Positions 30,624-61,800 of a stretch of 64,000 nt of DNA are shown piece after piece. The notes below the pieces were generated by a model. It was not told where the DNA came from. It worked only from the letters and a program-made list of their open reading frames with translations, and searched no databases. Within the stretch, counting starts at the first letter, position 1, and the number at the start of each line of letters is the position of its first letter. Source of the stretch: an uncultured bacterium (GTDB lineage Bacteria; Patescibacteriota; Microgenomatia; Levybacterales; UBA12049); contig CAWGXL010000001.1 of NCBI GenBank assembly GCA_963826535.1, positions 78,336 through 142,335 on the forward strand, in the 5' to 3' direction. Position numbers and translations under genes: made by a program.

Positions 30624-32390
30624 ATGACAAATCAAAATCACCTTCAAAATCTCCGCCATTCCTGCGCACATCTTTTAGCAGCAGCAGTATTGGAACTCTA
30701 TCCAAATACATTGATCACCATTGGCCCTGCTATTGAAAACGGTTTCTACTATGACTTTGATTTTTCTGAAGCTATTTCGGATATTGACCTACCAAAAATA
30801 GAAAAAAAAATGACTGAAATTATCAAATCTTGGGACAAATTTTCTTATCGCGAAGTAACTGAAAAAGAAGCAAAATCTTTTTATAAAAATAACCCGTTTA
30901 AATTAGAATTAATTGAAGAAATTGTAAAAAAAAGCCTGCCTGCCGGCAGGCAGGGCGAAAAAATTACATTTTATAAAGCCGGTAATTTCGAAGATCTGTG
31001 CCGTGGAGGACATAGCGAAAACCCCCAAAAAGACATAGGCGCTTTTAAACTTCTATCTATTGCCGGCGCGTACTGGCGGGGCGACGAAAAAAACAAAATG
31101 CTCACCCGCATCTACGGCACTGCCTTCCCAACCCAAAAAGAACTGGCCGATCACCTCACTTTGCTCGAAGAAACCAAAAAACGCGATCATAGAAAAATAG
31201 GTAAAAATCAAGAACTCTTTTTTATTGATGACATGGTAGGAAAAGGATTAGTAATGTGGCTTCCCAAAGGAAATATTGTTAAAGAACAAATTGAAAATCT
31301 TGCTAAGGAATTAGAAGCCAAACAAGGTTACCAACGCGTAACAACACCACATATTGCCAAAGAGGAACTATTCCAGACATCAGGACATTTACCATATTAT
31401 CAAGACAGTATGTATCCGCCAATGAAAATGGATGATGGGACGTATTATTTAAAAGCAATGAACTGCCCTCATCACCATAGAATTTACCAACATTCAAATA
31501 GAAGTTATAAAGAATTACCGCTAAAAATAGCCGAGTACGGAACAGTTTACCGCAATGAACTTTCAGGAACACTAGCCGGTTTGCTACGCGTAAGAGCATT
31601 AGATATGAATGACGCTCATATTTATGCGCGGAAAGACCAAATCAAAGATGAATTTAAGGCTGTTTTAAAACTGACTATCGATTATTTTGAAATTTTCGGC
31701 TTAAAAGACTATTGGTTTCGACTATCAAAATGGGACCCTAAGTACACCGATAAATATATTAATGAACCTAAAAACTGGGATTATACAGAGAAAGTAATTC
31801 GTGAAGTATTAGAAGAAATGAAGGTAAAATTTATTGAAGCAGATAATGAAGCTGCGTTCTACGGACCTAAAGTCGATATACAATTTAAATCAATTATCGG
31901 ACGCGAAGAATCAATGTCTACTATCCAATTGGATTTCATGGCCAAAAGTAGATTTGGTTTATCTTACATAGATGAAACTGGACAAGAGAATAATGAAGTT
32001 TTTGTTATTCATCGTGCACCTCTATCAACCCATGAAAGATTCATGGCATTTCTTATTGAACATACTGCCGGAGCTTTCCCTCTCTGGTTAGCTCCGGTTC
32101 AAGTTATCCTACTACCAATCGCCGATAGACACAATGATTTCGCCGAAAAACTAAACAATGAACTTTTAGAAAATAATATCCGCTCCCAGGTTGATACACG
32201 TCCGGAGCGACTCCAAGCCAAAATCCGAGACGCTACTTTACAAAAAGTACCCTTTATGGGTATAATAGGGGACAAAGAGATTGCTGACGAAGTGATTTCA
32301 GTGAGAGCAAGAACAGGAGAAGACTTGGGACTTAACAAGCTTCCTAAGTTTTTGCAAAAATTAAAAGAAGACATTGATAAGAAGAGGTAG
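30624..32390 (+). CDS. thrS: threonyl-tRNA synthetase (lacks N-terminal TGS domain)
   Basis: Starts in the N2/editing domain (HSCAHLLAAAV...GFYYDFDF); class II motifs and anticodon-binding C-terminus; 588 aa. Confidence 0.95.
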   Translation: MTNQNHLQNLRHSCAHLLAAAVLELYPNTLITIGPAIENGFYYDFDFSEAISDIDLPKIEKKMTEIIKSWDKFSYREVTEKEAKSFYKNNPFKLELIEEIVKKSLPAGRQGEKITFYKAGNFEDLCRGGHSENPQKDIGAFKLLSIAGAYWRGDEKNKMLTRIYGTAFPTQKELADHLTLLEETKKRDHRKIGKNQELFFIDDMVGKGLVMWLPKGNIVKEQIENLAKELEAKQGYQRVTTPHIAKEELFQTSGHLPYYQDSMYPPMKMDDGTYYLKAMNCPHHHRIYQHSNRSYKELPLKIAEYGTVYRNELSGTLAGLLRVRALDMNDAHIYARKDQIKDEFKAVLKLTIDYFEIFGLKDYWFRLSKWDPKYTDKYINEPKNWDYTEKVIREVLEEMKVKFIEADNEAAFYGPKVDIQFKSIIGREESMSTIQLDFMAKSRFGLSYIDETGQENNEVFVIHRAPLSTHERFMAFLIEHTAGAFPLWLAPVQVILLPIADRHNDFAEKLNNELLENNIRSQVDTRPERLQAKIRDATLQKVPFMGIIGDKEIADEVISVRARTGEDLGLNKLPKFLQKLKEDIDKKR

Positions 32391-33018
32391 ACAGGAACAA
32401 CAAAGACAGAGGTATTACAGAATTAACCATCGTATCAACGCTCCGCAAATAAGAGTGCTTGATGCGAAAGGGCAGCAAATCGGACTTTTAACAAAACAGG
32501 AAGCTTTGAACCTTGCCCAATCACAAGAACTTGATTTGGTGGAAGTAGCTCCAATGGCTAATCCGCCTGTTGCCAAAATTATAAATTTTAAGAAGTTCTT
32601 ATACCAGCAGGAAAAAAAGAAAAAGGAAGAAAAAAGAAAAGCAAAAGTATCCCAAACTAAAGAAATAAGACTTGGTCCGTTTATGTCAGAAAACGATCTC
32701 CAAGTCAGGATTAAAAGGGGCCGGGAGTTTATTGAAGACGGTAATAAATTACGCCTTGTAGTAAAATTTAAAGGCAGACAAATCACACACCCTGAATTTG
32801 GTCGTAAAATTATTAGTAATGTTATTGAGGCGCTTTCTGAAATATCAAAAGTTGATCGAGAACCTCGCTTTGAAGGAAGACAGATGATCGCAGTATTATC
32901 AGTTGAAAAAGGAAAAAAACATGCCGAAGACCCTGCTCGTCAACCTGAACGCAGCGAAGGATCTCCAAAAGATCCTAAATTAATTGAGAAAAACAAAAAA
33001 TTAGGAATTAAAATATGA
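32374..33018 (+). CDS. infC: translation initiation factor IF-3
   Basis: INAPQIRVLDAKGQQIGLL...ELDLVEVAPMANPPVAKIINFKKF IF-3 N- and C-domains plus a Lys-rich C-terminal tail. The true start is probably the non-canonical ATT at 32422, with GAGG 9 nt upstream; the 32374 ATG overlaps thrS. Confidence 0.85.
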   Translation: MIRRGRQEQQRQRYYRINHRINAPQIRVLDAKGQQIGLLTKQEALNLAQSQELDLVEVAPMANPPVAKIINFKKFLYQQEKKKKEEKRKAKVSQTKEIRLGPFMSENDLQVRIKRGREFIEDGNKLRLVVKFKGRQITHPEFGRKIISNVIEALSEISKVDREPRFEGRQMIAVLSVEKGKKHAEDPARQPERSEGSPKDPKLIEKNKKLGIKI

Positions 33019-33218
33019 AAAAAGTTAAGAAAAAAATTAAGGGCAGTTTAACCAGAAGATTCAAAATAACTAAAACCGGAAAAGTAATGTTCCGACATCA
33101 ATACGGCCGTCATCATAAACTCAAAAAATCCGGCAGCCGGATCAGAAGACAAAACGAACCTGGCGTCTTAGCAGAGCCGCTAGCAAGAAAAGTGAGAAAA
33201 ATGCTAGGCTACGCCTAG
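33015..33218 (+). CDS. rpmI: 50S ribosomal protein L35
   Basis: MKKVKKKIKGSLTRRFKITKTGKVMFRHQYGRHHKLKK is a typical L35. Confidence 0.9.
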   Translation: MKKVKKKIKGSLTRRFKITKTGKVMFRHQYGRHHKLKKSGSRIRRQNEPGVLAEPLARKVRKMLGYA

Positions 33219-33338
33219 AATCAGTTAAAAGTGCAAAATTAAAAATTGAAGAGGGAAAAAATAATAAGTTATTCTTCCTTATATAACTTTGAACTTTGCA
33301 TTTTGAATTTTGAATTTGAGTGACTGAAAGGAACGATT

Positions 33339-33689
33339 ATGGCCAGAGTAAAACGAGGAACAGTATCCAGAAGAAAACACAATAAGCTCTTGGATCGCAC
33401 CAAAGGCTATCGTGGTACCAAAAACAGGCTTATCAGGGTAGCCAAAGAAGCCTCGCTGCATGCCGATCAATACGCCTATCATGGCCGCAAACTTCGCAAA
33501 AGAAACTTCCGTACACTATGGATCACCCGCATTGGTGAAGCTGTTAAACAACAAGACATTTCCTACAGTGTATTTATAAACAAACTCAAAAAAGCCAATA
33601 TCACCATAGACCGCAAAATTCTAAGTAAACTACTACTAGAAGACCCCCAAACCTTCAAACAAATCGTCGAAACCGCCAAAAACTCCTAA
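33339..33689 (+). CDS. rplT: 50S ribosomal protein L20
   Basis: MARVKRGTVSRRKHNKLLDRTKGYRGTKNRLIRVAKEA... is a canonical L20. Confidence 0.95.
   Translation: MARVKRGTVSRRKHNKLLDRTKGYRGTKNRLIRVAKEASLHADQYAYHGRKLRKRNFRTLWITRIGEAVKQQDISYSVFINKLKKANITIDRKILSKLLLEDPQTFKQIVETAKNS
33611..33689 (+). repeat. direct repeat copy 1 (rplT 3' end)
   Basis: About 79 bp with roughly 88% identity to 34390-34468; the two copies flank the vapBC cassette. Confidence 0.7.
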
Positions 33690-33703
33690 TACAAAAATTA
33701 CAA

Positions 33704-34105
33704 TCACAAAGACTGTACAAAAGGAAATTTAACTTTATTTACAAATTTACGATCAGCAGTAACAAGCTTAATATTTTTCTTTTTCGCAATTACCGCATAT
33801 ATCATATCGTAGACAGTAGTTTTATATTTATTAGCAAGTATCGATGCTTCTTGTATCTCAGATTCCTGAATTTCATAAACCTTAAAACTAGCAGCATATA
33901 AAAGCTCTAAGCCCTCAACAATACGAACCTCCTTAATTTTTGATTTTGTAACTAATGCATTTGCTACTTCAATAAAAAGCAGAGACGGTACAATAATTTC
34001 ATCTGTCCCTGCAATATGGTTTCTTAGAATTTCCGCTGCATTACCACTTCCTTCTTCTTGGGTATTTATAAATTTTAAAACAATAGAGGCATCTATAACT
34101 ATCAT
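33704..34105 (-). CDS. vapC: PIN-domain ribonuclease toxin
   Basis: MIVIDASIVLKF...; acidic residues at PIN positions (D5, E/D mid, D near C-terminus: VTADRKF); 4-nt overlap with the upstream antitoxin. Confidence 0.8.
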   Translation of the reverse strand: MIVIDASIVLKFINTQEEGSGNAAEILRNHIAGTDEIIVPSLLFIEVANALVTKSKIKEVRIVEGLELLYAASFKVYEIQESEIQEASILANKYKTTVYDMIYAVIAKKKNIKLVTADRKFVNKVKFPFVQSL

Positions 34106-34347
34106 TGCTCGTACCGCATCTCAATGACTCTCTTACTTAAATTGAGACCAGGGTTTTCTTTAGCTAACTTCCTACCGAATTTTTTCATACGCTCAAGTAA
34201 TCTATTCTTATCGTTTTTTATTGTTTTTTTTTCTGCTAATTGCTCACGAATAACTGCTGCGACACTCTTCCGCTCCTTCGCTGCTTTAAGCTTCAATTCC
34301 ATATAAAGATCTTCAGGTATTCTCAAATTTGTAGTTATCCAATTCAT
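34102..34347 (-). CDS. vapB: ribbon-helix-helix-type antitoxin
   Basis: N-terminal ...LRIPEDLYMELKLKAAKERKSVAAVIREQLAE (RHH-like), 81 aa, overlaps vapC. Confidence 0.6.
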   Translation of the reverse strand: MNWITTNLRIPEDLYMELKLKAAKERKSVAAVIREQLAEKKTIKNDKNRLLERMKKFGRKLAKENPGLNLSKRVIEMRYEQ

Positions 34348-34389
34348 AGCACAATTGTACTAATATACTGCTAATTCGTCAAGCAAATT

Positions 34390-34468
34390 CCGCAAAATTC
34401 TGAGCATTCTACTTCTTGAAGACCCCCAAACCTTCAATCAAGTCGTCGAAACCGCCAAAAACGCATAA
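34390..34468 (+). repeat. direct repeat copy 2 (non-coding relic of rplT 3' end)
   Basis: Encodes ...LLLEDPQTFNQVVETAKNA* against the authentic rplT end ...LLLEDPQTFKQIVETAKNS*; not attached to an ORF. Confidence 0.7.
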
Positions 34469-34527
34469 TAAACTATTTCTATCTGTCAATTAATTATTTA
34501 GTATAAATTTTTGCTATAATTCCAATT

Positions 34528-35016
34528 ATGAGCATTGTCATCAAAGAGTTATCAGAAAAAGATAAGATGCCCCTAGAAAAAATATACCGAGAAACAGTAC
34601 TGAAAGAGTTTTTTGAATATACCCTTAATATACGAAAATATCTCACCAGTTCACCCGAGAAAGATGCTGCCTTAAAATTACCTATTAAAATCGGTGCATT
34701 TTATAATCAAAAATTAATAGGGTACTTAATGGCTGAAAAACCGTATGGAGGGATATTGTTTATCCCTTGGCTTGCAATCCTCAAAGAGCACCAACACAAG
34801 GGTGTAGGGAAAAAACTCTTGAAATCAATCGAAAAAAAAGCATCCATATTAGGAGTGCATAGTATTCATTTACAGTCGGATAAACTGAACGTTCCATTTT
34901 ACGAAAAATGTGGCTACACTGTTTTCGGATTTGATGAAAAAGGCTACTGGGGTACAGATAATTACCTTTTGAAAAAACCTATCATGGAACCGCATGAAGA
35001 AGCGTTTCTAAAATAA
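34528..35016 (+). CDS. GNAT-family N-acetyltransferase
   Basis: Acetyl-CoA-binding motif Q/HxxGVGKKLL (HQHKGVGKKLLKSIEKKA) and the GNAT beta-bulge region. Confidence 0.75.
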   Translation: MSIVIKELSEKDKMPLEKIYRETVLKEFFEYTLNIRKYLTSSPEKDAALKLPIKIGAFYNQKLIGYLMAEKPYGGILFIPWLAILKEHQHKGVGKKLLKSIEKKASILGVHSIHLQSDKLNVPFYEKCGYTVFGFDEKGYWGTDNYLLKKPIMEPHEEAFLK

Positions 35017-35072
35017 ATAAAAGACGCATCTATTCTGACAAGTCCATAAGTATTTGCTATAATCAATCTTAA

Positions 35073-36152
35073 ATGAAAGACAAGCTCCATAATATCAAAA
35101 ACGAAGCCATCTCATTAATCCTCTCTGCGCAAGACAAAAAAGAACTCGAAGAAATCCGCATTCAATTCTTGGGCCGCAATGGATCATTAACTCTGGCAAT
35201 GAAAGAAATCACAAATTTATCAAACGAAGAAAAACCCAGAATGGGCAAACTCATCAATGAAATAAAAACCATAATAGAAAATACAATTTACGAAAAATTA
35301 CAACAACTGACTCAACGCTCTCAACCCATAACTCATAACTTGGATGTCACCGAGCCGGGTATCCGTCCACCACTTGGACACCTTCACTTAGTAACTCAAG
35401 CGATCGAAGAAGTAACCACGATCTTTGAACGCATCGGATTCTCACGCGTTAAATATCCTGAAGTTGAATGGGATTATTATGCCTTCACTGCACTAAACTT
35501 TCCTGAAAATCACCCAGCCCGTGACGACTGGGAAACTTTCTTCACCACAGAAAAAAACCATTCCGAAAAAGGCTCAATTATCCTCACCCCACACACTTCC
35601 TCCGGACAGGTAAGGGAAATGGAAAAAGCAGTTGCCCAAAGTAAAAAAAACGGAAACCCTATAGACATTAAAATGCTAAATATTGCCAAGTGCTATAGGA
35701 GGCAATCAGATATCTCCCACACACAAATGTTTCACCAATTTGAAGGCCTTGTTGTCGGCAGCAATATCGCAATTACTCATTTGAAAGGTGTACTGGACTA
35801 TTTTGTCAAATCATATTTCGGCGAAAAGCGAATCTCAAGAATCCGACCATACCACTTCCAATTTACAGAACCATCGTTTGAAGTTGATGTAAGTTGCGGC
35901 ATTTGCAATGGTTCAGGGTTCATTAATAATCACGTCCCTTGCCGTCTATGTAAAGAAGGATGGCTCGAACTTGGAGGAGCCGGAATGGTTCATCCTAATG
36001 TTTTAAAATATGGAGGAATTAATCCAGAAAAATATACCGGCTTTGCCTTCGGCTGGGGAATAGAGCGGGTATTAATGATGAAAGAAGACCTGATTATTGA
36101 CGACTTAAGATTACTTTATTCCAATAAATTAGATTTCCTGGAGCAATTTTAA
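35073..36152 (+). CDS. pheS: phenylalanyl-tRNA synthetase alpha subunit
   Basis: Class II motifs (FRxE-like, GLELGGAGMVHPNVL, GFAFGWGIERV) plus a Bacillus-type CxxC..CxxC zinc-ribbon insertion. Confidence 0.95.
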   Translation: MKDKLHNIKNEAISLILSAQDKKELEEIRIQFLGRNGSLTLAMKEITNLSNEEKPRMGKLINEIKTIIENTIYEKLQQLTQRSQPITHNLDVTEPGIRPPLGHLHLVTQAIEEVTTIFERIGFSRVKYPEVEWDYYAFTALNFPENHPARDDWETFFTTEKNHSEKGSIILTPHTSSGQVREMEKAVAQSKKNGNPIDIKMLNIAKCYRRQSDISHTQMFHQFEGLVVGSNIAITHLKGVLDYFVKSYFGEKRISRIRPYHFQFTEPSFEVDVSCGICNGSGFINNHVPCRLCKEGWLELGGAGMVHPNVLKYGGINPEKYTGFAFGWGIERVLMMKEDLIIDDLRLLYSNKLDFLEQF

Positions 36153-36270
36153 AATGTCATCCCGACCGAAGCGATAGCGAAGCGGAGGGATCTCATACCA
36201 CTTATTTACTAAAAAAGACTGTGGCGTGAGATTCCTCGACTCCTTTCAGTCGCTCGGAATGACAAATGAA
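36153..36270. repeat. ~115-bp GC-rich imperfect palindrome (inverted pair of GTCATYCCGA(C)CGAAGCG units) between pheS and pheT
   Basis: tgtcatcccgaccgaagcg...gagggatctca // tgagattcctc...cgctcggaatgaca, a MITE/REP-like inverted repeat. Confidence 0.5.
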
Positions 36271-38233
36271 TATGGACATAAAAATTCTTGACTCTGCCTT
36301 ACGTGAACATTTAGAGACAAAAGCGAAGCCATTTGACATAGCAAGAGCTCTATCTCTAACAAGCGCTTCCGTAGAAAAAATTGAAAAATTTAAAAAAGAC
36401 TATTTGTATCACATTGAAGTCACCACAAATCGAATTGACATGGCCTCAATCATAGGCATTGCCAGAGAAGCAGCCGCAATATTGCCGCAATTCGGCTTTC
36501 CCGCCCATGTCATTGCGAGAAGCGAAACGACGCGGCAATCTCTTCCAAAAATAAAACCTTCAGAAAAACAAACTATAGAAATCCAAAGTAACGACAAACT
36601 CGTCAACCGTATTTGCGCTGTAATCATGGAGGTAACCCAAAAAGAATCTCCTGATTACATAAAAGACTTGCTTGAAGCAGCAGGAATACGTTGCCTCAAC
36701 AATCTTATCGATGTAACCAATTATGTCATACTTGAAATTGGCCACCCCACTCACGTATTTGATTATGACCGGCTACTTTCAAAAAAACTTATAATCCGTG
36801 AATCAAAAAAAGGGGAAAAAATTATTACTCTTGATAATAAAGAGCAAACACTTTTAGGCGGAGATATCGTTGCCGACAACGGAAAAGGAGAAATCATCGA
36901 TCTCTTAGGCATTATGGGGACCTTAAATTCAGTAGTAACAGATGAAACAAAACGCATATTATTCTTCATCAACAACAATGATCCCGTACGAATAAGAAAA
37001 ACGTCAATGTCTCTTGGAATTAGGACTGATGCCGCATCTCTCAATGAAAAAAATGTTGATCCTGAACTCGCCATTCAGGCACTGTATCGGGGAATTGAAT
37101 TATATCAAAAAACAGCTGATGCAAAAATCGTCAGCGAAATTATCAATATCTATCCAAAAAAATGGCGCCCAAAAACAATCACAGTGTCCGTTGAAAAAAT
37201 AAACCAAGTAATAGGTGTAAACATCTCTTTAAAAGTGGCAGCATTGATGCTCGAGCGATTGGACTTCAAAGTGAAACTGAATACAAATACCATAGCAGTA
37301 ACAATTCCATCTTACCGTGACTCAGATATGAATATTGCCGAAGACGTTATCGAAGAAATTGCCCGAATGTATGGATACCACAATATTAAAGGCAAACTAC
37401 CCCCTCTCAATTCAATCACGTCTCACCGGTATATAAATAAATTTTTCTGGGAAAATCGTGCCAAAGAAGCATTAAAGTATTGGGGATTTACTGAAGTCTA
37501 CACTTATTCAATGGTTTCAAAAAATATAATTACTGGACCAATTGAAAACGCACTAACTTTAAAAAATCCTTTTGATGAAGAACATATCTACATGAGAAAT
37601 ACGCTGATAAATAGTCACTTAGAAATTGTCAATGAAAACAAAAGCAGAGAAAAAATAAAAATTTTTGAAATGGCAAATGTCTATCATAAAAAGAATAAAG
37701 ACTTGCCTGATGAAATACAAACTCTGGCAGGAGTTGTTAAAGATAAAAATGTTAACTTTTACACAGTTAAAGGCTATGTTGAACAACTAACTATAAATTT
37801 AGGAATCGATAATCTACGATTTGAAACTTATAAAGGAACGGGTGCAGATATGTATCTCGGCAAAAAATATCTTGGAAGAATATCTGTATTAACTGAAAAT
37901 TTAATAGTGTTTGAGCTAAACTTCGCAATACTGGTGGAAAATGCCACCCTCAAAAAAACTTACTCACCTCTTAGTAAATTTCCGCAAGTCAATGAAGACC
38001 TGGCAATCATTGCCCCAACAAACATCTCAACAGGCGCGATTATTGACACAATAAAAAATCAAAACCCCCTAATTAAAGAAGTATCCCTGCTCGACAAATA
38101 TCAAGACACACGCACATATCACGTCATATATCAAAGTTACAAAAAAAATCTGACAAGCGAAGAAGTAGGGGACATCCGTCAAAAAATCCTCAAAACCCTA
38201 AAAGAAAAATTCAACGCGAGATTAAAGGAATAA
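36266..38233 (+). CDS. pheT: phenylalanyl-tRNA synthetase beta subunit (short form lacking N-terminal OB-fold tRNA-binding domain)
   Basis: B3/B4, B5, catalytic-like and C-terminal FDX-ACB-like regions; 655 aa against ~800 in E. coli. Confidence 0.9.
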   Translation: MNMDIKILDSALREHLETKAKPFDIARALSLTSASVEKIEKFKKDYLYHIEVTTNRIDMASIIGIAREAAAILPQFGFPAHVIARSETTRQSLPKIKPSEKQTIEIQSNDKLVNRICAVIMEVTQKESPDYIKDLLEAAGIRCLNNLIDVTNYVILEIGHPTHVFDYDRLLSKKLIIRESKKGEKIITLDNKEQTLLGGDIVADNGKGEIIDLLGIMGTLNSVVTDETKRILFFINNNDPVRIRKTSMSLGIRTDAASLNEKNVDPELAIQALYRGIELYQKTADAKIVSEIINIYPKKWRPKTITVSVEKINQVIGVNISLKVAALMLERLDFKVKLNTNTIAVTIPSYRDSDMNIAEDVIEEIARMYGYHNIKGKLPPLNSITSHRYINKFFWENRAKEALKYWGFTEVYTYSMVSKNIITGPIENALTLKNPFDEEHIYMRNTLINSHLEIVNENKSREKIKIFEMANVYHKKNKDLPDEIQTLAGVVKDKNVNFYTVKGYVEQLTINLGIDNLRFETYKGTGADMYLGKKYLGRISVLTENLIVFELNFAILVENATLKKTYSPLSKFPQVNEDLAIIAPTNISTGAIIDTIKNQNPLIKEVSLLDKYQDTRTYHVIYQSYKKNLTSEEVGDIRQKILKTLKEKFNARLKE

Positions 38234-38243
38234 CTACTCAAAG

Positions 38244-40592
38244 TTAAAGATTTATCTCTCCTAAATTAAGAACCGACGTTGGAGTCGGACCCTCCGTTAC
38301 TTCAGGTACCGGAGTATTTGTAGCAGCTGGGACCTGTGCAGCTCCCGGAGTGGGAGTAGGCGTAGGCGCACTTCCGCTAGTATTTTTATTTTCATTCCTT
38401 ACCTCATCCGGTGGATGATACATCTTATCATCCCTATGCTCAGTATTGAGCCACTCATCAATCGCTTTCTGCCAACGATTCTCGCCATCGGTTGAAGCTG
38501 GATCTGTCTCTTTGAATACCAAATAATTCTGCCCGTCCTTACTTCGATAAATTGAAGATTCTGATGTCGGTTCAGTGCCTTTTATAAAATACTCTGACCG
38601 GGTCCCTTGCCCCCCATGAGGCAAACCGCCCGCAAAAGCATCTACTTGCAATGCCACAACTTTGTCCGGCTTATTTGGCTGCTCATCTGATTTATTCTTC
38701 AAAACATGACTCATAATTTTATTCCAAATTGGCGAAGCGCCGGTAATACCCGACGCTATAGCAGGATCCATCGGAGAATTGTCACTATTCCCCACCCAAA
38801 CACCCGCTACAAATGAAGGAGTATAGCCGACAGTCCAGTTATCTCTTTTCTCATCGGTTGTTCCGGTCTTAACAGACACCGTCTTGCCCGACACTCCCAG
38901 CCAGGACTGTGTCCCGAATGCTGTCGCTCGCGCATTACTATCTAACAAAATATGTGAAATTATAAATGCGATTTCTTCAGAAAGTACCCTCTTCCCTTCC
39001 TTCTTTTTATATTCAAAAAGCTCACGTCCATTACTGTCTTTTACCTTCAATATCGAAACCGGATCTTGCCGGACTCCTTTATTCGCAAACACACTATATG
39101 CGGTAATCTCATCCATAAGCGATGCACCGCGCCCGCCTAACGCCAGCGACAATCCTACTTGTGACTTATTTTCAGCTGTCGGCTCCCAATTTCTGATCCC
39201 CATGTCATACGCCTTCTTCATCCCCGCATCGATACCAACAAGCGCCATCACTTTCACTGCCGGAATATTGAATGAATTACCCAATGCAAAACGCAGTTGT
39301 GTTGGTCCATGAAATTTCCCGTCATAATTTACCGGAACATATGGCTTCCCCGGGTCATTACTTGGGAATTCAGTCCGGGTATCTATCAACATAGTTGCTG
39401 CAGTATATCCTTTCTCAAATGCAGCCGCATAAATAATAGGCTTAAGCGATGAACCTGGATTTCTATTATTTGAAGTCGCGACATTGAAATTACCGTCAAT
39501 ATCTTCATTGAAATAGTCTTTACTTCCGACCATCGCCAAAATCTCACCCGTCTTTGGATCCACCACCACTGCGGCAGCGTTATTAACATCATAATTCTTC
39601 AATTTATCAATCTCCTCTTTCACGATTTCCTCTGCTTTTTTCTCTAGTTCATAGTCAAGTGTCGTTGTAACCTGCAACCCGCCGCCCAAAACAGTTTGAG
39701 CGCCAAACTGTTCCTCCAATTTATCTTTTACATACATCACAAAATGAGGTGCTTTTATTGACGAATATTTCTGTGAAAACTTAAATCGCCCAACCTGCTT
39801 ATATGCCTCGTCAGATTCAGCTTGACTAATATACCCATTTTCGACCATCTGTTTTAAAACTGCCTTTGTCCTTCCCAAATAATATCTATTACCGCTAAAC
39901 GGCGAATAAAGACTCGGACTCTGCGGCAAACCTGCCATAAAAACAGACTCTGCCAAAGTCAGCTTATTTGCCGGTTTTCCGAAATACATTTCACTTGCAG
40001 CTTCAGCCCCAATAGCTGTACCACCATAAGGAATATTATTCAAATACATCTCCAGGATCTCGTCCTTACTGTATTTCTGATTAACCTGTATTGAAAGTAT
40101 AAGTTCTTTAATTTTTCTAGGCAGACTACGTTCTGGAGAAAGAAGCACATTTTTAACAAGTTGCTGGCTGATTGTTGAACCTCCTGCCAACCCTTTACCC
40201 TCTAAATAATTCTTAACGACACGAAGATACGCGACAGGAGAAAACCCTTTATTTTCATAAAAATCTTCGTCCTCTATTGCAATAGTAGACTCCCGAAGCG
40301 ACTGTGGAATGTCCGTTAGCTTTACATAAGTCCTGTTCTCGTCTTGATAAACAGAGTAAAGCAGTACACCTTTTTTATCATAGATTCTTGTTGCGTCTTT
40401 ATACTTCGAAGCAATTAGTTTTCCCGGAGTAGGCAGATCACGGCTGTACCAAACAAAAAGAACCGGCACTGCAATAATGCATGCGACAATTCCCAAAAAA
40501 AATATTATGAGTGCTTTATTAAACACCTTCAACCAAGGTACCCGAACACCATCTCTCCCACGCCTGCGTCGTCTGGAAGTTCTATAGTCCAT
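38244..40592 (-). CDS. class A penicillin-binding protein (PBP1A: glycosyltransferase + transpeptidase)
   Basis: N-terminal TM, GT51 motifs (EDxxFYxHxG, GGSTISQQLVKN), transpeptidase SxxK/SxN/KTG (..SGKTVSVKTGTT..), and a Pro/Thr-rich C-terminal tail. Confidence 0.9.
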   Translation of the reverse strand: MDYRTSRRRRRGRDGVRVPWLKVFNKALIIFFLGIVACIIAVPVLFVWYSRDLPTPGKLIASKYKDATRIYDKKGVLLYSVYQDENRTYVKLTDIPQSLRESTIAIEDEDFYENKGFSPVAYLRVVKNYLEGKGLAGGSTISQQLVKNVLLSPERSLPRKIKELILSIQVNQKYSKDEILEMYLNNIPYGGTAIGAEAASEMYFGKPANKLTLAESVFMAGLPQSPSLYSPFSGNRYYLGRTKAVLKQMVENGYISQAESDEAYKQVGRFKFSQKYSSIKAPHFVMYVKDKLEEQFGAQTVLGGGLQVTTTLDYELEKKAEEIVKEEIDKLKNYDVNNAAAVVVDPKTGEILAMVGSKDYFNEDIDGNFNVATSNNRNPGSSLKPIIYAAAFEKGYTAATMLIDTRTEFPSNDPGKPYVPVNYDGKFHGPTQLRFALGNSFNIPAVKVMALVGIDAGMKKAYDMGIRNWEPTAENKSQVGLSLALGGRGASLMDEITAYSVFANKGVRQDPVSILKVKDSNGRELFEYKKKEGKRVLSEEIAFIISHILLDSNARATAFGTQSWLGVSGKTVSVKTGTTDEKRDNWTVGYTPSFVAGVWVGNSDNSPMDPAIASGITGASPIWNKIMSHVLKNKSDEQPNKPDKVVALQVDAFAGGLPHGGQGTRSEYFIKGTEPTSESSIYRSKDGQNYLVFKETDPASTDGENRWQKAIDEWLNTEHRDDKMYHPPDEVRNENKNTSGSAPTPTPTPGAAQVPAATNTPVPEVTEGPTPTSVLNLGEINL

Positions 40593-40695: not shown

Positions 40696-41907
40696 ATGGA
40701 CAAGATCGAAGAAATACTAACCCGCGGAGTAGCCAATATCATTCCGAACAAACAAGAACTGGGAAAGCTTCTCCGCTCAGAAAAAAAAATAAACGTATAC
40801 TTAGGCATAGATCCAACATCGCCCCATATCCACCTTGGCCATGCCCTTCCTCTCAGGAAATTACAAGCCTTAGCAGAGCTTGGACATAACGCCACTTTAC
40901 TTATTGGTGATTTTACCGCACTAGTAGGCGATACTTCAGACAAAGAATCCGAAAGGCCCATGCTTACAAAAGAAGAGATCAATAAAAATTTTCAAACATA
41001 CAAAAACCAAGCGGAAAAAATCGTTAATTTATCAAAAGTAAAAATCAGATATAACAGCGAATGGTTAAGTAAACTGAGCTTTGAGGATGGTATAAAACTT
41101 CAGAAAAAATTTTCCCTGAACGATTTTAGCAGTCGGGAATTGATTAAAAAAAGATTAATTGAAGGAAAACACGTTCGACTGGATGAAACATCATATCCAC
41201 TAATGCAGGGTTATGACAGCTACATCTTAGATACTGATATTCAGTTGGGAGCAGCAGATCAAACATTTAATATGCAAGCAGGCCGTACCTTACAGAAAAT
41301 ATTACGAAATAAAGAATCCTTCATTATCGCCAATGACTATCTGGAAGGCACAGATGGGCGGAAAATGAGCAAATCCTGGGGTAATGCGATTTGGCTCGAC
41401 GATTCAGCTGAAGATATGTACGTCAAAGTCATGGCAATCAAGGATGATTTAATTATTCAATACTTCACCCTTGCAACAAATCTCCCCCTTCAAGAAATAG
41501 ATGATATAAAAAAATCACTCGAAAAAAACAAGAATCCCATGGCTCTTAAAAAACAATTAGCCTTTGAAATTACTTCCGAATTACATGACAACATCACAGC
41601 CCAAAAAGCAGCTGAAAACTTTGAAAAAACTGTACAAAAAGACGAAATGCCTACAATTATTCCAACACTAGAAATTTCCATAAATGATACTATTACTACT
41701 TCAGATGTTGTGGTGGAATTAAATCTTGCAACTAGCAAATCTGAAGCTAAAAGATTATTTGATCAAGGTGGCGTAAAAATAAATGGAGCATCAATTAGTA
41801 ACTCTCAAGCTTTGTTCAAACCATTTCTAAAAAATAGTGAGGCAATTATCCAAGTTGGCAAACGAAATTTCAAAAAAGTTAAACACAAAATGTCCCTTAA
41901 TTCTTGA
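40696..41907 (+). CDS. tyrS: tyrosyl-tRNA synthetase
   Basis: HIGH-like (PHIHLGH), KMSKS (KMSKSWGN) and a C-terminal S4-like domain. Confidence 0.95.
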   Translation: MDKIEEILTRGVANIIPNKQELGKLLRSEKKINVYLGIDPTSPHIHLGHALPLRKLQALAELGHNATLLIGDFTALVGDTSDKESERPMLTKEEINKNFQTYKNQAEKIVNLSKVKIRYNSEWLSKLSFEDGIKLQKKFSLNDFSSRELIKKRLIEGKHVRLDETSYPLMQGYDSYILDTDIQLGAADQTFNMQAGRTLQKILRNKESFIIANDYLEGTDGRKMSKSWGNAIWLDDSAEDMYVKVMAIKDDLIIQYFTLATNLPLQEIDDIKKSLEKNKNPMALKKQLAFEITSELHDNITAQKAAENFEKTVQKDEMPTIIPTLEISINDTITTSDVVVELNLATSKSEAKRLFDQGGVKINGASISNSQALFKPFLKNSEAIIQVGKRNFKKVKHKMSLNS

Positions 41908-42135: not shown

Positions 42136-42357
42136 ATGAAATATTTAAATTCTGATCCAAAAATTATGGGCGGCGATCTGGTAATAAAGGGCACCAGGAT
42201 TCCTATTGATGTAATTCTTTACAGGCTCAAGGACGGTTATTCCATTCAGGAAATCCATCGTATGTACCCCACGCCTACTCTGGAAACCTTAAAGGGAGCA
42301 ATAGGAGAGGCAATCGACCTTCTTACAACCAAAATTCATGGTAAAGAGATTTTATAA
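42136..42357 (+). CDS. DUF433-family small protein (putative antitoxin-like partner)
   Basis: 73 aa; ...IMGGDLVIKGTRIPIDVILYRLKDGYSIQEI... matches recalled DUF433 conservation; overlaps the downstream gene. Confidence 0.6.
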   Translation: MKYLNSDPKIMGGDLVIKGTRIPIDVILYRLKDGYSIQEIHRMYPTPTLETLKGAIGEAIDLLTTKIHGKEIL

Positions 42358-42697
42358 ACATAAACTTTTATTGGACGAAAACATGCCGCTACGCTCAGAC
42401 CTCCCTCAGCTAAATAAACATTTTGACGTAAAGCATGTTGATCATGATCTTAAACAAGGCGGAATATCAGATCAAAAAGTATATAACCTTGCTGTTACTC
42501 AGAAACGAATCATAATCACTCGTAATACAAAACACTTTCTTCCTCTCGCCGGCACTAAGGCTGATGTTGGCATTATTGGTATACCTCCACATTGGTTCAC
42601 CACTCAAGTAGATAATAAATTAATCTCATTTCTCAAAACCAAAACTCCCAAAACCTTACGAAAAAAACTAATCCCATTGAGTAAAGTACAAAAATAA
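42338..42697 (+). CDS. DUF5615/Mut7-C-like PIN-fold protein (putative toxin partner)
   Basis: 119 aa, LLLDENMP...DQKVYNLAVTQKRIIITRNTKHF; DUF433-DUF5615 gene pairs recur in bacteria. Confidence 0.5.
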   Translation: MVKRFYKHKLLLDENMPLRSDLPQLNKHFDVKHVDHDLKQGGISDQKVYNLAVTQKRIIITRNTKHFLPLAGTKADVGIIGIPPHWFTTQVDNKLISFLKTKTPKTLRKKLIPLSKVQK

Positions 42698-57314: not shown

Positions 57315-58796
57315 TTAGTTTTTATTATACATCTCTTTAATAATTTTTACCACACCTTCATTCGCATCCACCTCCACCAAATCCCCATCCCTCAAAACTT
57401 TAGTAGCAATTTTCGTGCCCACTATGCAAGGTTTTCTTAACTCGCGGCTGACAATAGCCGCATGGGAAGTCAATCCTCCCGTGTCTGTAATCACCGCCAT
57501 TGATCTTTTCATAATAAATACATACTCGGGAGTGGTCATTGGAGCTACCAAAATACTATTCTCTCGGAAATGATCCGCGTCTTTTGGATCTAAGATTACC
57601 TGAACAAAACCGGTCAGCTTGGACACACTACCGCGACTTGCGACTACCCCTCTCAATTCAGTGATATTTTGACCGGCCTTTTCCTCCGAATAAAGACTCC
57701 AGTAATTTTCTGCTTGATCCAGCATAATTTCTGTCACAGCTCCATCAGCGCACAGGAAACCAAAAGCTCTTCTTCTGCGATCAAGAAGAGAAGTTACGTC
57801 TTGTTTCTTATTGATTATTCGTTCAATCTCTAATTCTCGAAGATTTAAAAGATCATCTTTCTTGTACTTATAGCGGCGGCAAACTTCGTTCAGCATCAGA
57901 TTCTTATAATGAAGATATATCCAAACTTCTCTCTTGCGTGCGTCTTGCCATTCAATTCCGGCCACAATCGCTGCGGCCATTGCCGTAATTCTTTGGGGAA
58001 GCTTATATTTCTCTGTCAGGGCAATTTTCCTCTCCTTTGTATGTGCTCGCTTCTCTTCAAATTCTGCTCTCGGAGATGCCCCTTGCTCTCTCTTTTTCCT
58101 GGAAAAGTAATCAACATCAACTATTTCCACTCCGTCGTAACTATTTTTCAACCAAAAATATTTTTTTTGGTGCCCTAGAATATCATTGGTTTCAGCCAAA
58201 TCTATTTCCTCCTCCTGATAAAAAGAAGGCTTTTCAGGTGCGGTCAACACTTCCATCATATGCTGCCGCTCCTTATCATTGGAAGTGAAAGCTTTCAATT
58301 CTTCCTCCAGAATAGGCAAAGAGCCATAATTTCCGAGCTCCGGCACTGTCACATATATCCAGAAGTTAATAGTCAGTACATGAAAACTATGCCAGAGACG
58401 TGCGAATTCCGTTTGAGTTAGTTGGGGTAAATGTAATCGTTCAATCTTCTGTTCGGCCCTATGTAATTTCTTCAGATGTTGAATATAATTTCTATACAAT
58501 CCTCTGCGTTTCTTGGTTGGAAGCATATATTTCAGGAACACGCTCCCGCCGTATCGATGCATATCCCGCCATTCGTTCACAAAGACCATACGCTTATCCC
58601 GATAAAGCGCCAGACCTTTCGGCCATTTCTCACCCTTAAATGCCTTCTGGAAATAATTTCGGTTGAAAATCCCCTCAAGAAAGTCGGCCGTAAAAAATAT
58701 CCGTATCGGGGCAGGCCCCCAACGAAAGAGTTCGGCATTAGGGTCGAGTGGAAAATTCTGTTGTTTCATCTTCATATTTTTATGTACATTATTCAT
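57315..58796 (-). CDS. stand-alone PEP-utilizing-enzyme mobile-domain protein (module paralog)
   Basis: C-terminal ...GVVASRGSVSKLTGFVQVIL...VAPMTTPEYVFIMKRSMAVITDTGGLTSHAAIVSRELRKPCIVGTKIATKVLRDGDLVEVDANEGVVKII; N-domain KKYFWLKNSY motif as in the giant protein modules. Confidence 0.75.
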   Translation of the reverse strand: MNNVHKNMKMKQQNFPLDPNAELFRWGPAPIRIFFTADFLEGIFNRNYFQKAFKGEKWPKGLALYRDKRMVFVNEWRDMHRYGGSVFLKYMLPTKKRRGLYRNYIQHLKKLHRAEQKIERLHLPQLTQTEFARLWHSFHVLTINFWIYVTVPELGNYGSLPILEEELKAFTSNDKERQHMMEVLTAPEKPSFYQEEEIDLAETNDILGHQKKYFWLKNSYDGVEIVDVDYFSRKKREQGASPRAEFEEKRAHTKERKIALTEKYKLPQRITAMAAAIVAGIEWQDARKREVWIYLHYKNLMLNEVCRRYKYKKDDLLNLRELEIERIINKKQDVTSLLDRRRRAFGFLCADGAVTEIMLDQAENYWSLYSEEKAGQNITELRGVVASRGSVSKLTGFVQVILDPKDADHFRENSILVAPMTTPEYVFIMKRSMAVITDTGGLTSHAAIVSRELRKPCIVGTKIATKVLRDGDLVEVDANEGVVKIIKEMYNKN

Positions 58797-58800
58797 CTTG

Positions 58801-61800
58801 CTACAGTATTTTCACCACCCCATGATTCCCTTTTACCTCAACCAAATCCCCATCCTTCAAAACTTTTGTTGCATTTCGTGTCCCTATCACGCAAGGCTTG
58901 CCCATCTCCCGGGCGATAATAGCTGCATGACATGTAATGCCGCCCTCATCAGTCACAAACGCAGCCGCCTTTTTCATAGCCGGCATATACTCTGGCCGCG
59001 TCATCGAAGTAACAAGAATATCTCCTTCTTCGACTTTTGCAAGCGAATTTACAGAGAGACATACTTTCACTCTCCCCACCACATTTCCTAGCGAAGCTGC
59101 CTCTCCATGAAGATCCCCCTGTGTTTTCACTTGCTTTTGTGCAAACATTGGCGCTAGCTGCTCATACAACGCCCCGCTAGCCACATCAACCCGTCCCTTA
59201 GTTTTAAGGTAAAGCCCGCCCTTTCTTCTCTCCGCGAGTATTGGCGCAAGCGCTTTGATCGCAGCCATATTTTGATTTAATTCAAATGGTGTAAGATATC
59301 GTAGTAAATTTATAGAAATATTAACCCTCCTGGAAAGCTCTTCCAATAACAGGTCTAGCCACTCTATAGCCATCAGAATATTCTTTTTCCGCTCGTCCTG
59401 CCAGAGGGTCAAAAACTCAAGCGCCTCAAGCTGCACACCCAGTTCTTTTGGTAGTCCAAGTTTTTTAAGCAGCAAACCTTTCTGCTTCAGCAGATTAGTA
59501 TTGATAGATTTTTCATGTTTAATTTCATTTGCTTCTTTTAAAACATCATCGTATGTAAGAGGTTTTCTTCCCAAATATGAATTACGAAGCCAATAATAAT
59601 TTTTCAAATAATTTTTAATTAGAATATCAGGATCTTTGGCAGATGCAATCCTAACCAAATCATCATATGCCTCTTGCGCGAATGATTTTGCTAGGGGAGT
59701 AGTGAGAAGTACAAATGCCGCGTTTAGTTTCTTGGAATCTTCAATGTATTTCCTAAGCTCTGCTTTAATTTTTTTATCCGCGACAAGTACAAAAGGCTCA
59801 ATTATGTGGCTTATACAAACGCTATCACTCATTGCCCTCGAGCTTTCTCGCAAGAGGCTTAGAAACTCGCCATCACTCAAGGGAATTAATGCTGTTTTTT
59901 GAATTTTTGTAAATAATCGCTGCGATTTTTGCATAATGAGCTCATGCTTTTTCTTTATGCCCACAAAATAATTAGGGTTTTGTTTAAGTTTCGCCAAAAG
60001 TTCATTAGCCATTCGTTTCAGATCTGCCATTCTATATAACATATACCCGTAATCGTCTTTTATATCAAACACGAAACACGTATACGCTATTCCTGCAAAA
60101 TCAGCTGCTGAGAGAATAAGAAGTGGAGTCACGTTCAACCCCTGCGGATACCACCGTTCGGCAGACAACACTTTCATAGTCCGAACTATTTCTTCATTAC
60201 CCGAACCTTTCTTGCGCGCGTCACTCGCCCTCTCCAAAACCCTCACAGCCCCCGCATCCGCATCCACTTCCACCAAATCCCCATCTTTCAAAACCTGAGT
60301 CGCGATCTTCGTGCCAATAATACAAGGCTTTCTCATTTCGCGGGCAATAATGGCTGCGTGACTTATCACACCCCCTTCGTCAGTTACAAAAGCAGCCGCT
60401 TTTTCCATAGCTGCTGTAAAATTGGGCGTCGTCATAGTCGCAACAAGAATATCACCCTTTCCAACCCGCATACTGTCCTCATTTGTCAAAACGATTTTTG
60501 CCAGACCGCGCACAACCCCTTTGCATGCCACCAAACCGGTAATCTCATTGACAGATTTTTTGCTCCTGTTAAAAACACTCCGTTTTTGTACATACCTACG
60601 CGCATCTTCTCCCGCCACCAAGATTACTTTTTCACCAAAATAAATTAGTGACTCTTTTTTTCTATCTCCGAGCTTGCTCTGAATATCAAACTTACCGTGC
60701 AGTGCATCCCTAACCTCAAGCGGCGAAAAGTAGAGCAAATCATGGTATGATACCCCAAGATGTCTTGCCGCAGATACTAGAAATGGTTTGAAGATTGCCG
60801 ATGCATGATTGAAAAAATCTGCCCGTTCAGTTCGAAGAAAAACAATAGTTCGGATCTGCTTGGCCAACATTCTTTCTTCATTCGTAAATCGTTTTATAAG
60901 TTGGCCTATTCTCCTTTCTCTTTCATGTCGTCTTTTACTTCTTTCAGTAAACGCTTGTAGGGCTTTATCTCGTGCCTGGCTTTCAAGCCGCTGGAGCACA
61001 TCTTCCTTACTCCACCAATCTCCTATAAAAAAACGGATTGCCAACCAACCGTATTTATCTGCATGTTTCGCTGCAAGCCTCTGCTTTTCCTTCTCGGTTT
61101 TAAATTTGTGAATCGCCAGTTTCAAAAAATCTTCTTGTTCTTTGTCTGTAGCCGTTAATTGATTCGGATTTGTAAGTAATTCCAAAACGATATTTTTTTC
61201 TTCCTCGCTCTTAGAATATTTTTCAGCTAATTCTCTTGTAATTTCCATTTCCGGTTTCTCAAAAAACGCGATAGAATAATAAACGCAGTAATCTTTCGCC
61301 TGTTCATAAAATTTTGCGATTACTTCACCTGAAACCCTTTTTTCTAAATCCCCTGAGAAACTTTTTCTCAAATCCCCTGCGAACTTAACCAAGTTATTGC
61401 CGGAAATTATACAGTCCGTTAGAATAGTATTAATATAATCAATATTCTCGCGCTTAATTTTTTCTTTTACGCGTGCGGTAAAATCATCAATATCCGATTT
61501 AACATTGAAAAAATCGTAATTATGTTTTTCAGAATCAGAGGTACGTACAAACCACCTGACAGGCTTATTCAGCTTGAATTTCTTTATAAGACCCGCTTCA
61601 TCAATTAATCCGCCTACAACAATAGCCGAAGCAAAATAAGGCTCAATTCTCTGACCGAAATAAACAATATCTTCATTTTTCACATCTGGAATCTCATTCA
61701 ATACCTTTGCGCCAGCCTCACCACCGTCAGCCCTCTCCAGTAACCTCACCACACCTTCGTCAGCATCCACTTCCACCAAATCACCGTCATGCAAAACCTT

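Follow-up and report, generated by a model that had tools for sequence, protein, structure and literature searches.

Downstream of rplT, the gene of ribosomal protein L20, a stretch of 64,000 nucleotides from an uncultured Levybacterales bacterium (contig CAWGXL010000001.1; the whole stretch is called the window) carries a second, orphaned copy of the 3' end of that gene, and a vapBC toxin-antitoxin (TA) operon is placed between the two copies. Most probably this duplication is a scar of ordinary recombination at a hypervariable hotspot of accessory genes and not the footprint of a transposon-style insertion. With respect to the event itself, we consider it probable, with moderate confidence, that a recombination which was homologous on one side and illegitimate on the other placed in tandem two alleles of the rplT-pheS spacer, itself hypervariable, that had diverged before. 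An initial annotation of this DNA had read the structure differently, i.e., as a TA cassette inserted with duplication of its target. The features concerned are the following:

33339..33689, forward strand: rplT, the live gene of ribosomal protein L20, 116 aa (Pfam PF00453, E = 1.2e-38)
33611..33691, forward strand: copy A, the live arm of the direct repeat; last 26 rplT codons, stop codon and 2 nt
33692..33703, no strand: spacer between the stop codons of the convergent genes rplT and vapC, homologous to the vapC-distal cassette flank of the sister lineage introduced below
33704..34105, reverse strand: vapC, PIN-domain toxin, 133 aa (Pfam PF01850, E = 9.4e-15, 55.7 bits against a cut-off of 23.6)
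34102..34347, reverse strand: vapB, ribbon-helix-helix (RHH) antitoxin, 81 aa (RHH_1, PF01402, marginal with 22.3 bits against a cut-off of 20.5)
34349..34382, reverse strand: vapBC promoter, TTGACG-17-TACAAT (promoter scan, 10/12 match)
34383..34389, no strand: junction bases GCAAATT, from cassette to orphan
34390..34470, forward strand: copy B, the orphan rplT 3' fragment; 26 codons, stop codon and 2 nt
34471..34527, forward strand: flank after the orphan, with a TTGCTATAAT-type promoter before the GNAT gene
34528..35016, forward strand: GNAT acetyltransferase, 162 aa (Pfam PF00583, E = 5e-13)
35035..36152, forward strand: pheS promoter CTGACA-17-TGnTATAAT (promoter scan, 11/12 match) and pheS, the gene itself at 35073-36152

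The two copies align without gaps. Between 33611-33691 and 34390-34470, 71 of 81 positions are identical (88%), and the start-to-start spacing is 779 nt. The repeat of about 79 bp and 88% identity which had been noted initially is confirmed by exact alignment of 33611-33689 (69/79, 87%). When copy A is searched with blastn against the whole window, copy B is returned at E = 1.5e-24 and the next best match at E = 0.03; the pair is the sole high-identity direct repeat in the 64 kb. The homology is sharply limited on both sides, on the left at 33611/34390 and on the right 2 nt beyond the stop codon, and its longest perfect run is 20 nt (blastn). In frame, copy B translates to ...FRKILSILLLEDPQTFNQVVETAKNA (also given as …RKILSILLLEDPQTFNQVVETAKNA), in the direction of rplT. 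Because a stop codon is positioned in frame upstream and ATG, GTG and TTG starts are all absent, it lies outside of every listed open reading frame (ORF), as had been stated. An nhmmer profile of 110 rplT 3' ends matches copy B at E = 1.1e-9 and detects no orphan rplT end beyond it in the window and 164 loci; in these loci from relatives tblastn, self-repeat search and nhmmer uniformly failed to reveal a second rplT 3' end. Rfam has no match in copy B and folding z-scores are near 0. Its GC content is 45%, compared with 41% in live copy A and 38% in the whole window, i.e., the orphan is not AT-enriched. Copy B is a non-coding relic.

The operon between the copies is compact. VapC matches the PIN proteins PAE0151 (E = 4e-5) and PAE2754 in the PDB. 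The acidic residues D5 (IDAS), E46 (IEVANAL), D99 (VYDM) and D117 (TAD) are present and align to PAE0151; judged by eye, the motifs IDAS, EVANAL, VYDM and TAD are found in every homologue aligned. Seventy VapC homologues were found. This VapC is a divergent member, because the NCBIfam VapC equivalog model was matched only below its cut-off (24.5 bits against 80, E = 2.3e-5). The vapB gene is located directly upstream of vapC in the same orientation and overlaps it by 4 nt; its product is 64-77% identical to VapB from homologous cassettes. The putative operator is a near-palindrome, GCACAATTGTAC (34349-34360), which overlaps with the -10 box. This box ends 6 nt ahead of the vapB ATG and leaves no room for a Shine-Dalgarno sequence; the transcript may therefore be leaderless, and the operon probably is transcribed as such an mRNA. 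Further, the block from -35 box to ATG (window 34345-34382, reverse strand) is conserved in cassettes from five genomic contexts, including L072, L076, L077 and L161, and this conservation begins at the -35 box.

Thus described, the cassette looks like a working type II TA system in which VapB, the RHH antitoxin, would restrain the PIN RNase VapC, and both would control their own expression via the palindrome over the promoter. As in known type II VapBC modules, the two small genes overlap, that of the antitoxin coming first; the toxin has a PIN domain with four acidic residues, the antitoxin is of the RHH type, a palindrome overlaps the strong promoter, and many paralogous or xenologous copies are found in varied contexts of related genomes. 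It differs from them in the sub-threshold NCBIfam match. The module is an ordinary, divergent VapBC and in itself nothing unusual.

Next, relatives were consulted. By L20 these are nearly all Candidatus Levybacteria/Levyibacteriota metagenome-assembled genomes (MAGs) from the candidate phyla radiation (CPR, Patescibacteria). Genome and metagenome scans with L20 retrieved no relative above 86% L20 identity. The closest lineage available is a groundwater lineage (L072-L075, L078, L162-L164), referred to as the sister lineage. Its protein identities to the window are 86% for L20, 84% for IF3, 81% for L35, 67% for ThrS and 78% for a penicillin-binding protein (PBP). In a neighbor-joining tree of L20 nucleotide sequences the window and this lineage (L072/L163) are sisters with a bootstrap of 88%.

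In the sister lineage a homologous cassette occupies this locus as well, and its orientation is the same. DNA identity is 75% over 712 nt including the non-coding ends (blastn); for comparison, it is 83% in rplT, 82% at the 5' end of pheS and 74% in the PBP gene. On the promoter side the alignment includes 2 nt outside the -35 box, and on the other side it passes the vapC stop codon by ~22 nt. It joins window 33680-34384 with L163rc 1082-1786 and runs through the spacer at 33692-33703; the homology stops at 34384 and the repeat begins at 34390. In the sister lineage an extra ORF of 205 aa is located between rplT and vapC, and a non-homologous ORF of 225 aa takes the place of copy B and GNAT. 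An orphan rplT end is not detectable there with tblastn or the nhmmer profile. Most parsimoniously, then, the cassette would be older than the split between window and sister lineage.

The two closest VapC homologues, P0002 (63%) and P0003 (62%), are both convergent and just downstream of rplT. P0002 belongs to the sister lineage, P0003 to L076, whose L20 pairs with that of L001 (bootstrap 99%); L001 has no cassette. Other VapC homologues (54-61%) adjoin recA, mreB/PEGA and tRNA-Trp/DUF2207. A hidden Markov model of the family retrieved no further rplT-adjacent cassettes. Homologous cassettes are repeatedly convergent to the 3' ends of housekeeping genes, with distances of 9 nt to tRNA-Trp, 145 nt to recA and 24 nt to a PEGA-domain gene (L158 4408-4490; L077 5180-5325; L161 2784-2808). 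A repeat search at the cassettes adjacent to recA, mreB and tRNA-Trp revealed no gene-end duplications. In L163rc the 10-mer CGCCTAAATA is present at the rplT stop codon and again beside the vapC-distal flank of the cassette (438-447 and 1085-1094; P about 0.03), the second time on the far side of the inserted 205-aa ORF. This is a weak hint at a separate event, of which the second occurrence may be the trace, as an orphan rplT end that is very short or has decayed.

Between copies A and B the identity is 88%, against a maximum of 79% to more than 160 other rplT ends; with the sister lineage each shares 75-79%. In two positions (33636 and 33669) A and B have a state unlike that of all five outgroups. 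Since they are mutual nearest relatives and share two derived sites, A and B separated after the split of window and sister lineage. Since, in addition, the sister lineage has the cassette, the duplication looks younger than the residence of the cassette at this locus. The mutual relationship of A and B further means that any joined alleles came from close relatives, after the sister lineage had split off.

Is the downstream copy decaying, as had been proposed? Of the 10 differences between A and B, five can be polarized. Three are derived in live A (33629, N→K; 33684/33686, A→S) and two in orphan B (the equivalents of 33628 and 33663, the latter I→V). Identities to the five outgroups, each over 78 positions, are essentially equal, 61/60/55/53/53 for A and 60/60/56/56/51 for B, and B has acquired no frameshift, indel or stop codon. 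This leans against decay and is not a formal exclusion of it. By NG86 the differences between the copies are 5.5 synonymous (Sd) and 4.5 nonsynonymous (Nd), with dN/dS of 0.21. The amino acid differs in only 4 of 25 codons, whereas 10 random substitutions should change about 7 (P = 0.03), and a wholly neutral divergence of A and B is rejected (P = 0.015). From this small sample we lean to the view that both ends diverged while functional and were juxtaposed recently.

The site itself is most variable. In 115 distinct loci of the Levybacteria type pheS is found downstream of rplT in 65, separated by a spacer of -4 to 2,813 nt (median 358), and 19 of the 115 have no pheS within 3 kb. Universal conservation of the arrangement, as had been stated, is therefore not supported. 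Empty sites, as called for by a comparison with relatives which lack the insertion, exist: in L080 rplT and pheS overlap (ATGA), and in L071 and L079 they are 25 and 60 nt apart. Where the site is filled the genes differ, GNAT in the window, orf205 and orf225 in the sister lineage, orf60 and orf363 in L076. Judged by such spacers, the rplT-pheS site is a hotspot of recombination and gene flux. In many loci (L004, L005, L006, L009, L012, L088, L092, L100, L101, L105, L115, L123 and others) a short conserved ORF or hairpin follows 10-80 nt after rplT, with the motif TA(C/T)AAT…ATG…TTTTGGTTTTACTTTACTTCCC…CGGGAGG, which the window lacks. It may encode a small conserved peptide, or represent a leader or a structured RNA.

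The tandem joining of two alleles would have proceeded as follows. Allele 1 would comprise rplT, vapC and vapB, with the vapBC operon convergent to rplT and directly after its stop codon. Allele 2 would comprise rplT, followed by its native flank, the GNAT gene and pheS. A single recombination event would have joined DNA of two close relatives. At one end the joint would have formed by homologous pairing within conserved sequence (rplT if this was the left end, pheS/pheT if it was the right), at the other, at 34385-34390, by illegitimate joining. The product would be rplT-vapCB, then the last 81 nt of rplT of the other allele, then GNAT and pheS. The orphan would stem either from the resident gene, as its displaced 3' end, or from an incoming fragment, as its truncated end. 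In version (a) an incoming fragment of rplT up to and including copy A and vapCB, anchored in rplT, would have displaced the resident end, copy B; this version fits because the extent of the cassette is minimal. In version (b) an incoming fragment of copy B, flank, GNAT and pheS, anchored in pheS or pheT, would have been joined beside a resident rplT-vapCB. Version (b) fits because the sister lineage already has the cassette and the window-specific block starts at 34385-34393. Relative to the sister lineage, this block begins in the very zone in which copy B begins (34390) and ends at the pheS promoter; DNA homology restarts at the promoter and 5' end of pheS (35055-35209, 82% to L163, blastn). 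Behind the orphan, the first ~16 nt of 34471-34527 weakly resemble the native rplT-downstream flank in L163 and L076, which is weak evidence, and the blastn match of copy B to the rplT end of L163 reaches 34484. Donor, recipient and direction are all inferred because no parental allele was recovered.

Several points weigh against such a joining. Neither parental allele, i.e., rplT-vapCB without orphan or rplT-GNAT-pheS without vapBC, was found above 86% L20 identity. No clear microhomology could be made out at the proposed illegitimate junction, where GCAAATT (34383-34389) is close to GCAAAATT (34392-34399). Classical homology-facilitated illegitimate recombination usually deletes recipient DNA rather than duplicating it. 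The structure stems from a single metagenome assembly, and the statistics of the copies rest on 10 differences in 81 nt. If copy A were constrained and copy B neutral, ~64% of the differences should be nonsynonymous, where ~45% are observed (P about 0.1-0.3), and the 3:2 split of polarized changes would have P about 0.09; these P values are estimates from difference counts, and neither rejects this model. The dN/dS ratio which the initial annotation had suggested as a check thus speaks against neutrality of both copies and leaves neutrality of the orphan alone unrejected.

That model belongs to the original interpretation, a de novo insertion of vapBC at the 3' end of rplT which duplicated ~81 bp of target, the copies being identical at the start, A remaining under selection and B decaying neutrally. 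For this the repeats enclose exactly one TA operon, which is complete and minimal and includes 7 nt upstream of its -35 box and 14 nt behind the vapC stop codon, relatives have empty sites (L080, L071, L079), homologous cassettes beside recA, mreB and tRNA-Trp imply that the cassette moves, and, as stated, the substitution data give no formal rejection. Nevertheless, we consider it unlikely. At the same locus, without an orphan, a homologous cassette is already present in the sister lineage, while A and B diverged later; the orphan displays no rate acceleration, indel or stop codon and a GC content of 45%; and derived changes are no fewer in the live copy than in the orphan, two of those in the live copy being nonsynonymous. 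Among all ORFs of at least 100 aa between 25 and 45 kb Pfam disclosed no transposase, integrase, or tyrosine or serine recombinase, i.e., none within about 8 kb of the cassette. The cassette ends lack inverted repeats, and the insert carries vapB and vapC, nothing else. We know of no insertion mechanism which generates an 81-bp target duplication without a recombinase. Of the initial annotation there remain, then, the PIN and RHH genes exactly between the copies on the opposite strand (33704-34347), the upstream copy as the functional end of rplT, and the empty sites; the conserved site, the target duplication, the clean footprint and the decay are not upheld.

A small integrative unit with an rplT 3' end of its own as attachment site appears less likely again. 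Here a circle of 779 bp, consisting of an rplT end and vapCB, would have entered by a single crossover in rplT, either RecA-dependent (Campbell type) or by a site-specific recombinase acting in trans, so that the gene was restored, the resident end displaced, and repeats were left which allow precise excision. The architecture is indeed like that of att-flanked islands at gene 3' ends, the homology on the right ending 2 nt after the stop codon. Two of the three closest VapC homologues are likewise convergent and just downstream of rplT, in the sister and a non-sister clade, and in L163 the 10-mer CGCCTAAATA from its own rplT end lies beside the vapC-distal flank. Against this, a recombinase is absent from the cassette and from the surrounding 8 kb or so, none of the 164 loci has a second orphan rplT end, the other two rplT-adjacent cassettes included, and the cassettes beside recA, mreB and tRNA-Trp lack flanking gene-end duplications. 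The longest perfect match of the arms is a mere 20 nt, a poor substrate for RecA. Taken further, and with still more reserve, one may speculate that the rplT 3' end is a recombinase-free attachment site and that vapBC cassettes travel among Levybacteria with a surrogate rplT end, enter by homologous crossover and can be precisely excised via the 81-nt repeats. If true, this would explain the rplT-convergent position of three of the four closest relatives of the cassette, in sister and non-sister lineages, and the end of an essential gene would be landing pad and insurance against loss at the same time.

Two other explanations are very improbable. One is an assembly artefact in which the rplT-downstream alleles of two co-existing strains were stitched into one contig. 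The contig is a single metagenome-assembled one, the VapC and GNAT proteins were each found on one contig (148.5 kb) only, and an artefact would also account for an undecayed orphan. The junction at 34389/34390, however, is not at shared sequence, and the cassette end has nothing in common with rplT. Because A and B have no exact run above 20 nt and the junction is unshared, a k-mer graph should have no path to this join without spanning reads. The other, to which we assign similarly little weight, is retention of copy B as functional non-coding DNA, e.g., as the upstream part of a native pheS promoter region which now drives GNAT. Relatives have their pheS promoter within 10-60 nt of the rplT stop codon, copy B is contiguous with the promoter-like TTGCTATAAT before GNAT, and change in the orphan is not accelerated. 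Yet the conservation is codon-like with an excess of third-position change (dN/dS 0.21), a pattern which indicates past coding constraint and not a DNA or RNA signal; neither structure nor Rfam signals are present, and 81 nt upstream of the -35 region exceed the needs of a promoter.

The tandem joining of alleles has well-described counterparts. At Rhs, CDI (contact-dependent growth inhibition) and type VI secretion system (T6SS) effector loci, displaced 3' ends and orphan arrays have been attributed to homology-facilitated illegitimate recombination, in which incoming DNA is anchored by homologous pairing at one end and linked illegitimately at the other [Kirchberger et al., 2017 (PMC5361080), citing de Vries and Wackernagel, 2002; Prudhomme et al., 2002]. 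The window shares with these scars a conserved upstream anchor gene, a new module directly after it, a former 3' end which is displaced as orphan and retains part of the conserved sequence, the absence of a dedicated recombinase and the existence of alternative alleles in related strains, here empty sites, other fillers and a homologous cassette without orphan. The differences are that the anchor is an essential ribosomal-protein gene, that a TA pair replaces the effector-immunity pair, that one orphan is present and not an array, and that displacement and a truncated incoming end both fit. Integrative elements in the 3' ends of tRNA or protein genes also have gene-end direct repeats which flank the insert, one of which keeps the gene intact. 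Here, integrase and excisionase are missing nearby, the insert measures only ~700 nt, typical att cores are shorter than these repeats, which have diverged by 12%, and the same bounded element was found in no other genome (nhmmer, 164 loci). With target-site duplications of transposons and insertion sequences the window shares direct repeats flanking an insertion; it differs in the repeat of 81 bp and in the lack of a transposase within about 8 kb and of terminal inverted repeats. Transposase-made target-site duplications usually are 2-14 bp, and 81 bp is far beyond this. Lastly, chromosomal hotspots of accessory-gene turnover flanked by core genes are a general concept. Like these, rplT and pheS bracket a spacer with a content that differs in almost every lineage; the peculiarity is a reduced CPR genome and a position inside a cluster of translation genes usually regarded as fixed.

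The mechanism is not new: TA modules in variable spacers and gene-end orphans from illegitimate recombination are both known. The significance of the locus is that recombination-driven gene flux can be read from it, and dated, for an uncultivated CPR lineage with a reduced genome. A TA pair, a GNAT gene and, it seems, even the pheST core were swapped inside a translation-gene cluster which normally is treated as fixed. The orphan rplT end is a molecular fossil which could identify donor and recipient alleles once genomes of closer relatives are available. Such genomes would also show whether these bacteria gain DNA by one-sided homologous recombination.

The pheST genes are mosaic. Residues 1-50 of PheS are 80-84% identical to L163 and L071, and residues 577-655 of PheT 70-73%, in keeping with the relationships of the species. 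The PheS core and the main part of PheT have 35% and 32% identity to the same loci, although the PBP beside pheST has 78%. The best matches of PheS core (77%) and PheT main part (58%) are in lineages which by L20 are more distant. On the L20 tree two types of pheST are intermingled, one with ~65-79% and one with ~40% identity to the window (window versus L163/L071 and about 45 other loci). This suggests that the pheST core was repeatedly replaced in situ, presumably by homologous recombination at the conserved gene ends. We considered the orphan as the left end of an imported pheST block. The DNA breakpoint is inside pheS (~codon 50), away from copy B, and because of this a simple pheST import as origin of the orphan is unsupported; a larger import from a very close relative is possible. 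Farther downstream, TyrS (tyrS 40696-41907; L163 2376-3584) has 43% identity to L163, the PBP beside it 78%. TyrS may be another aminoacyl-tRNA synthetase that was xenologously replaced.

The GNAT gene is a lineage-specific filler between orphan and pheS. It is absent from the rplT loci of all relatives; the only homologues detected, two in number (54 and 47% identity), are in other contexts. A role as TacT-like toxin with a lost antitoxin was considered, but the NCBIfam matches are weak, of generic acetyltransferase type and far below cut-offs. A duplication around GNAT (34457-34527 versus 35020-35072) was dismissed; the similarity is mostly the promoter consensus TTGCTATAAT, a recurrent motif with 4 occurrences in the window, and an AAAAACGCATAA-like match is at chance level.

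The remaining genes of the cluster are:

30624-32390: thrS
32374-33018: infC
33015-33218: rpmI
36266-38233: pheT
38244-40592: class A PBP, convergent

The spacer between rpmI and rplT (33219-33338) is unusually long with 120 nt, most relatives having about 10-90 nt; it contains the repeat TTTGAATTTTGAATTTGA and has no Rfam match. A DUF5615 protein of 119 aa is encoded at 42338-42697, 8 kb from vapBC. We take DUF5615 to be a PIN-like domain with a DUF433 antitoxin as its usual partner, so this may be another TA toxin. Finally, 57347-61968 contains four diverged direct copies with 64-70% identity over 223 nt, ~1.45 kb apart, which look like a tandem array of paralogous genes.

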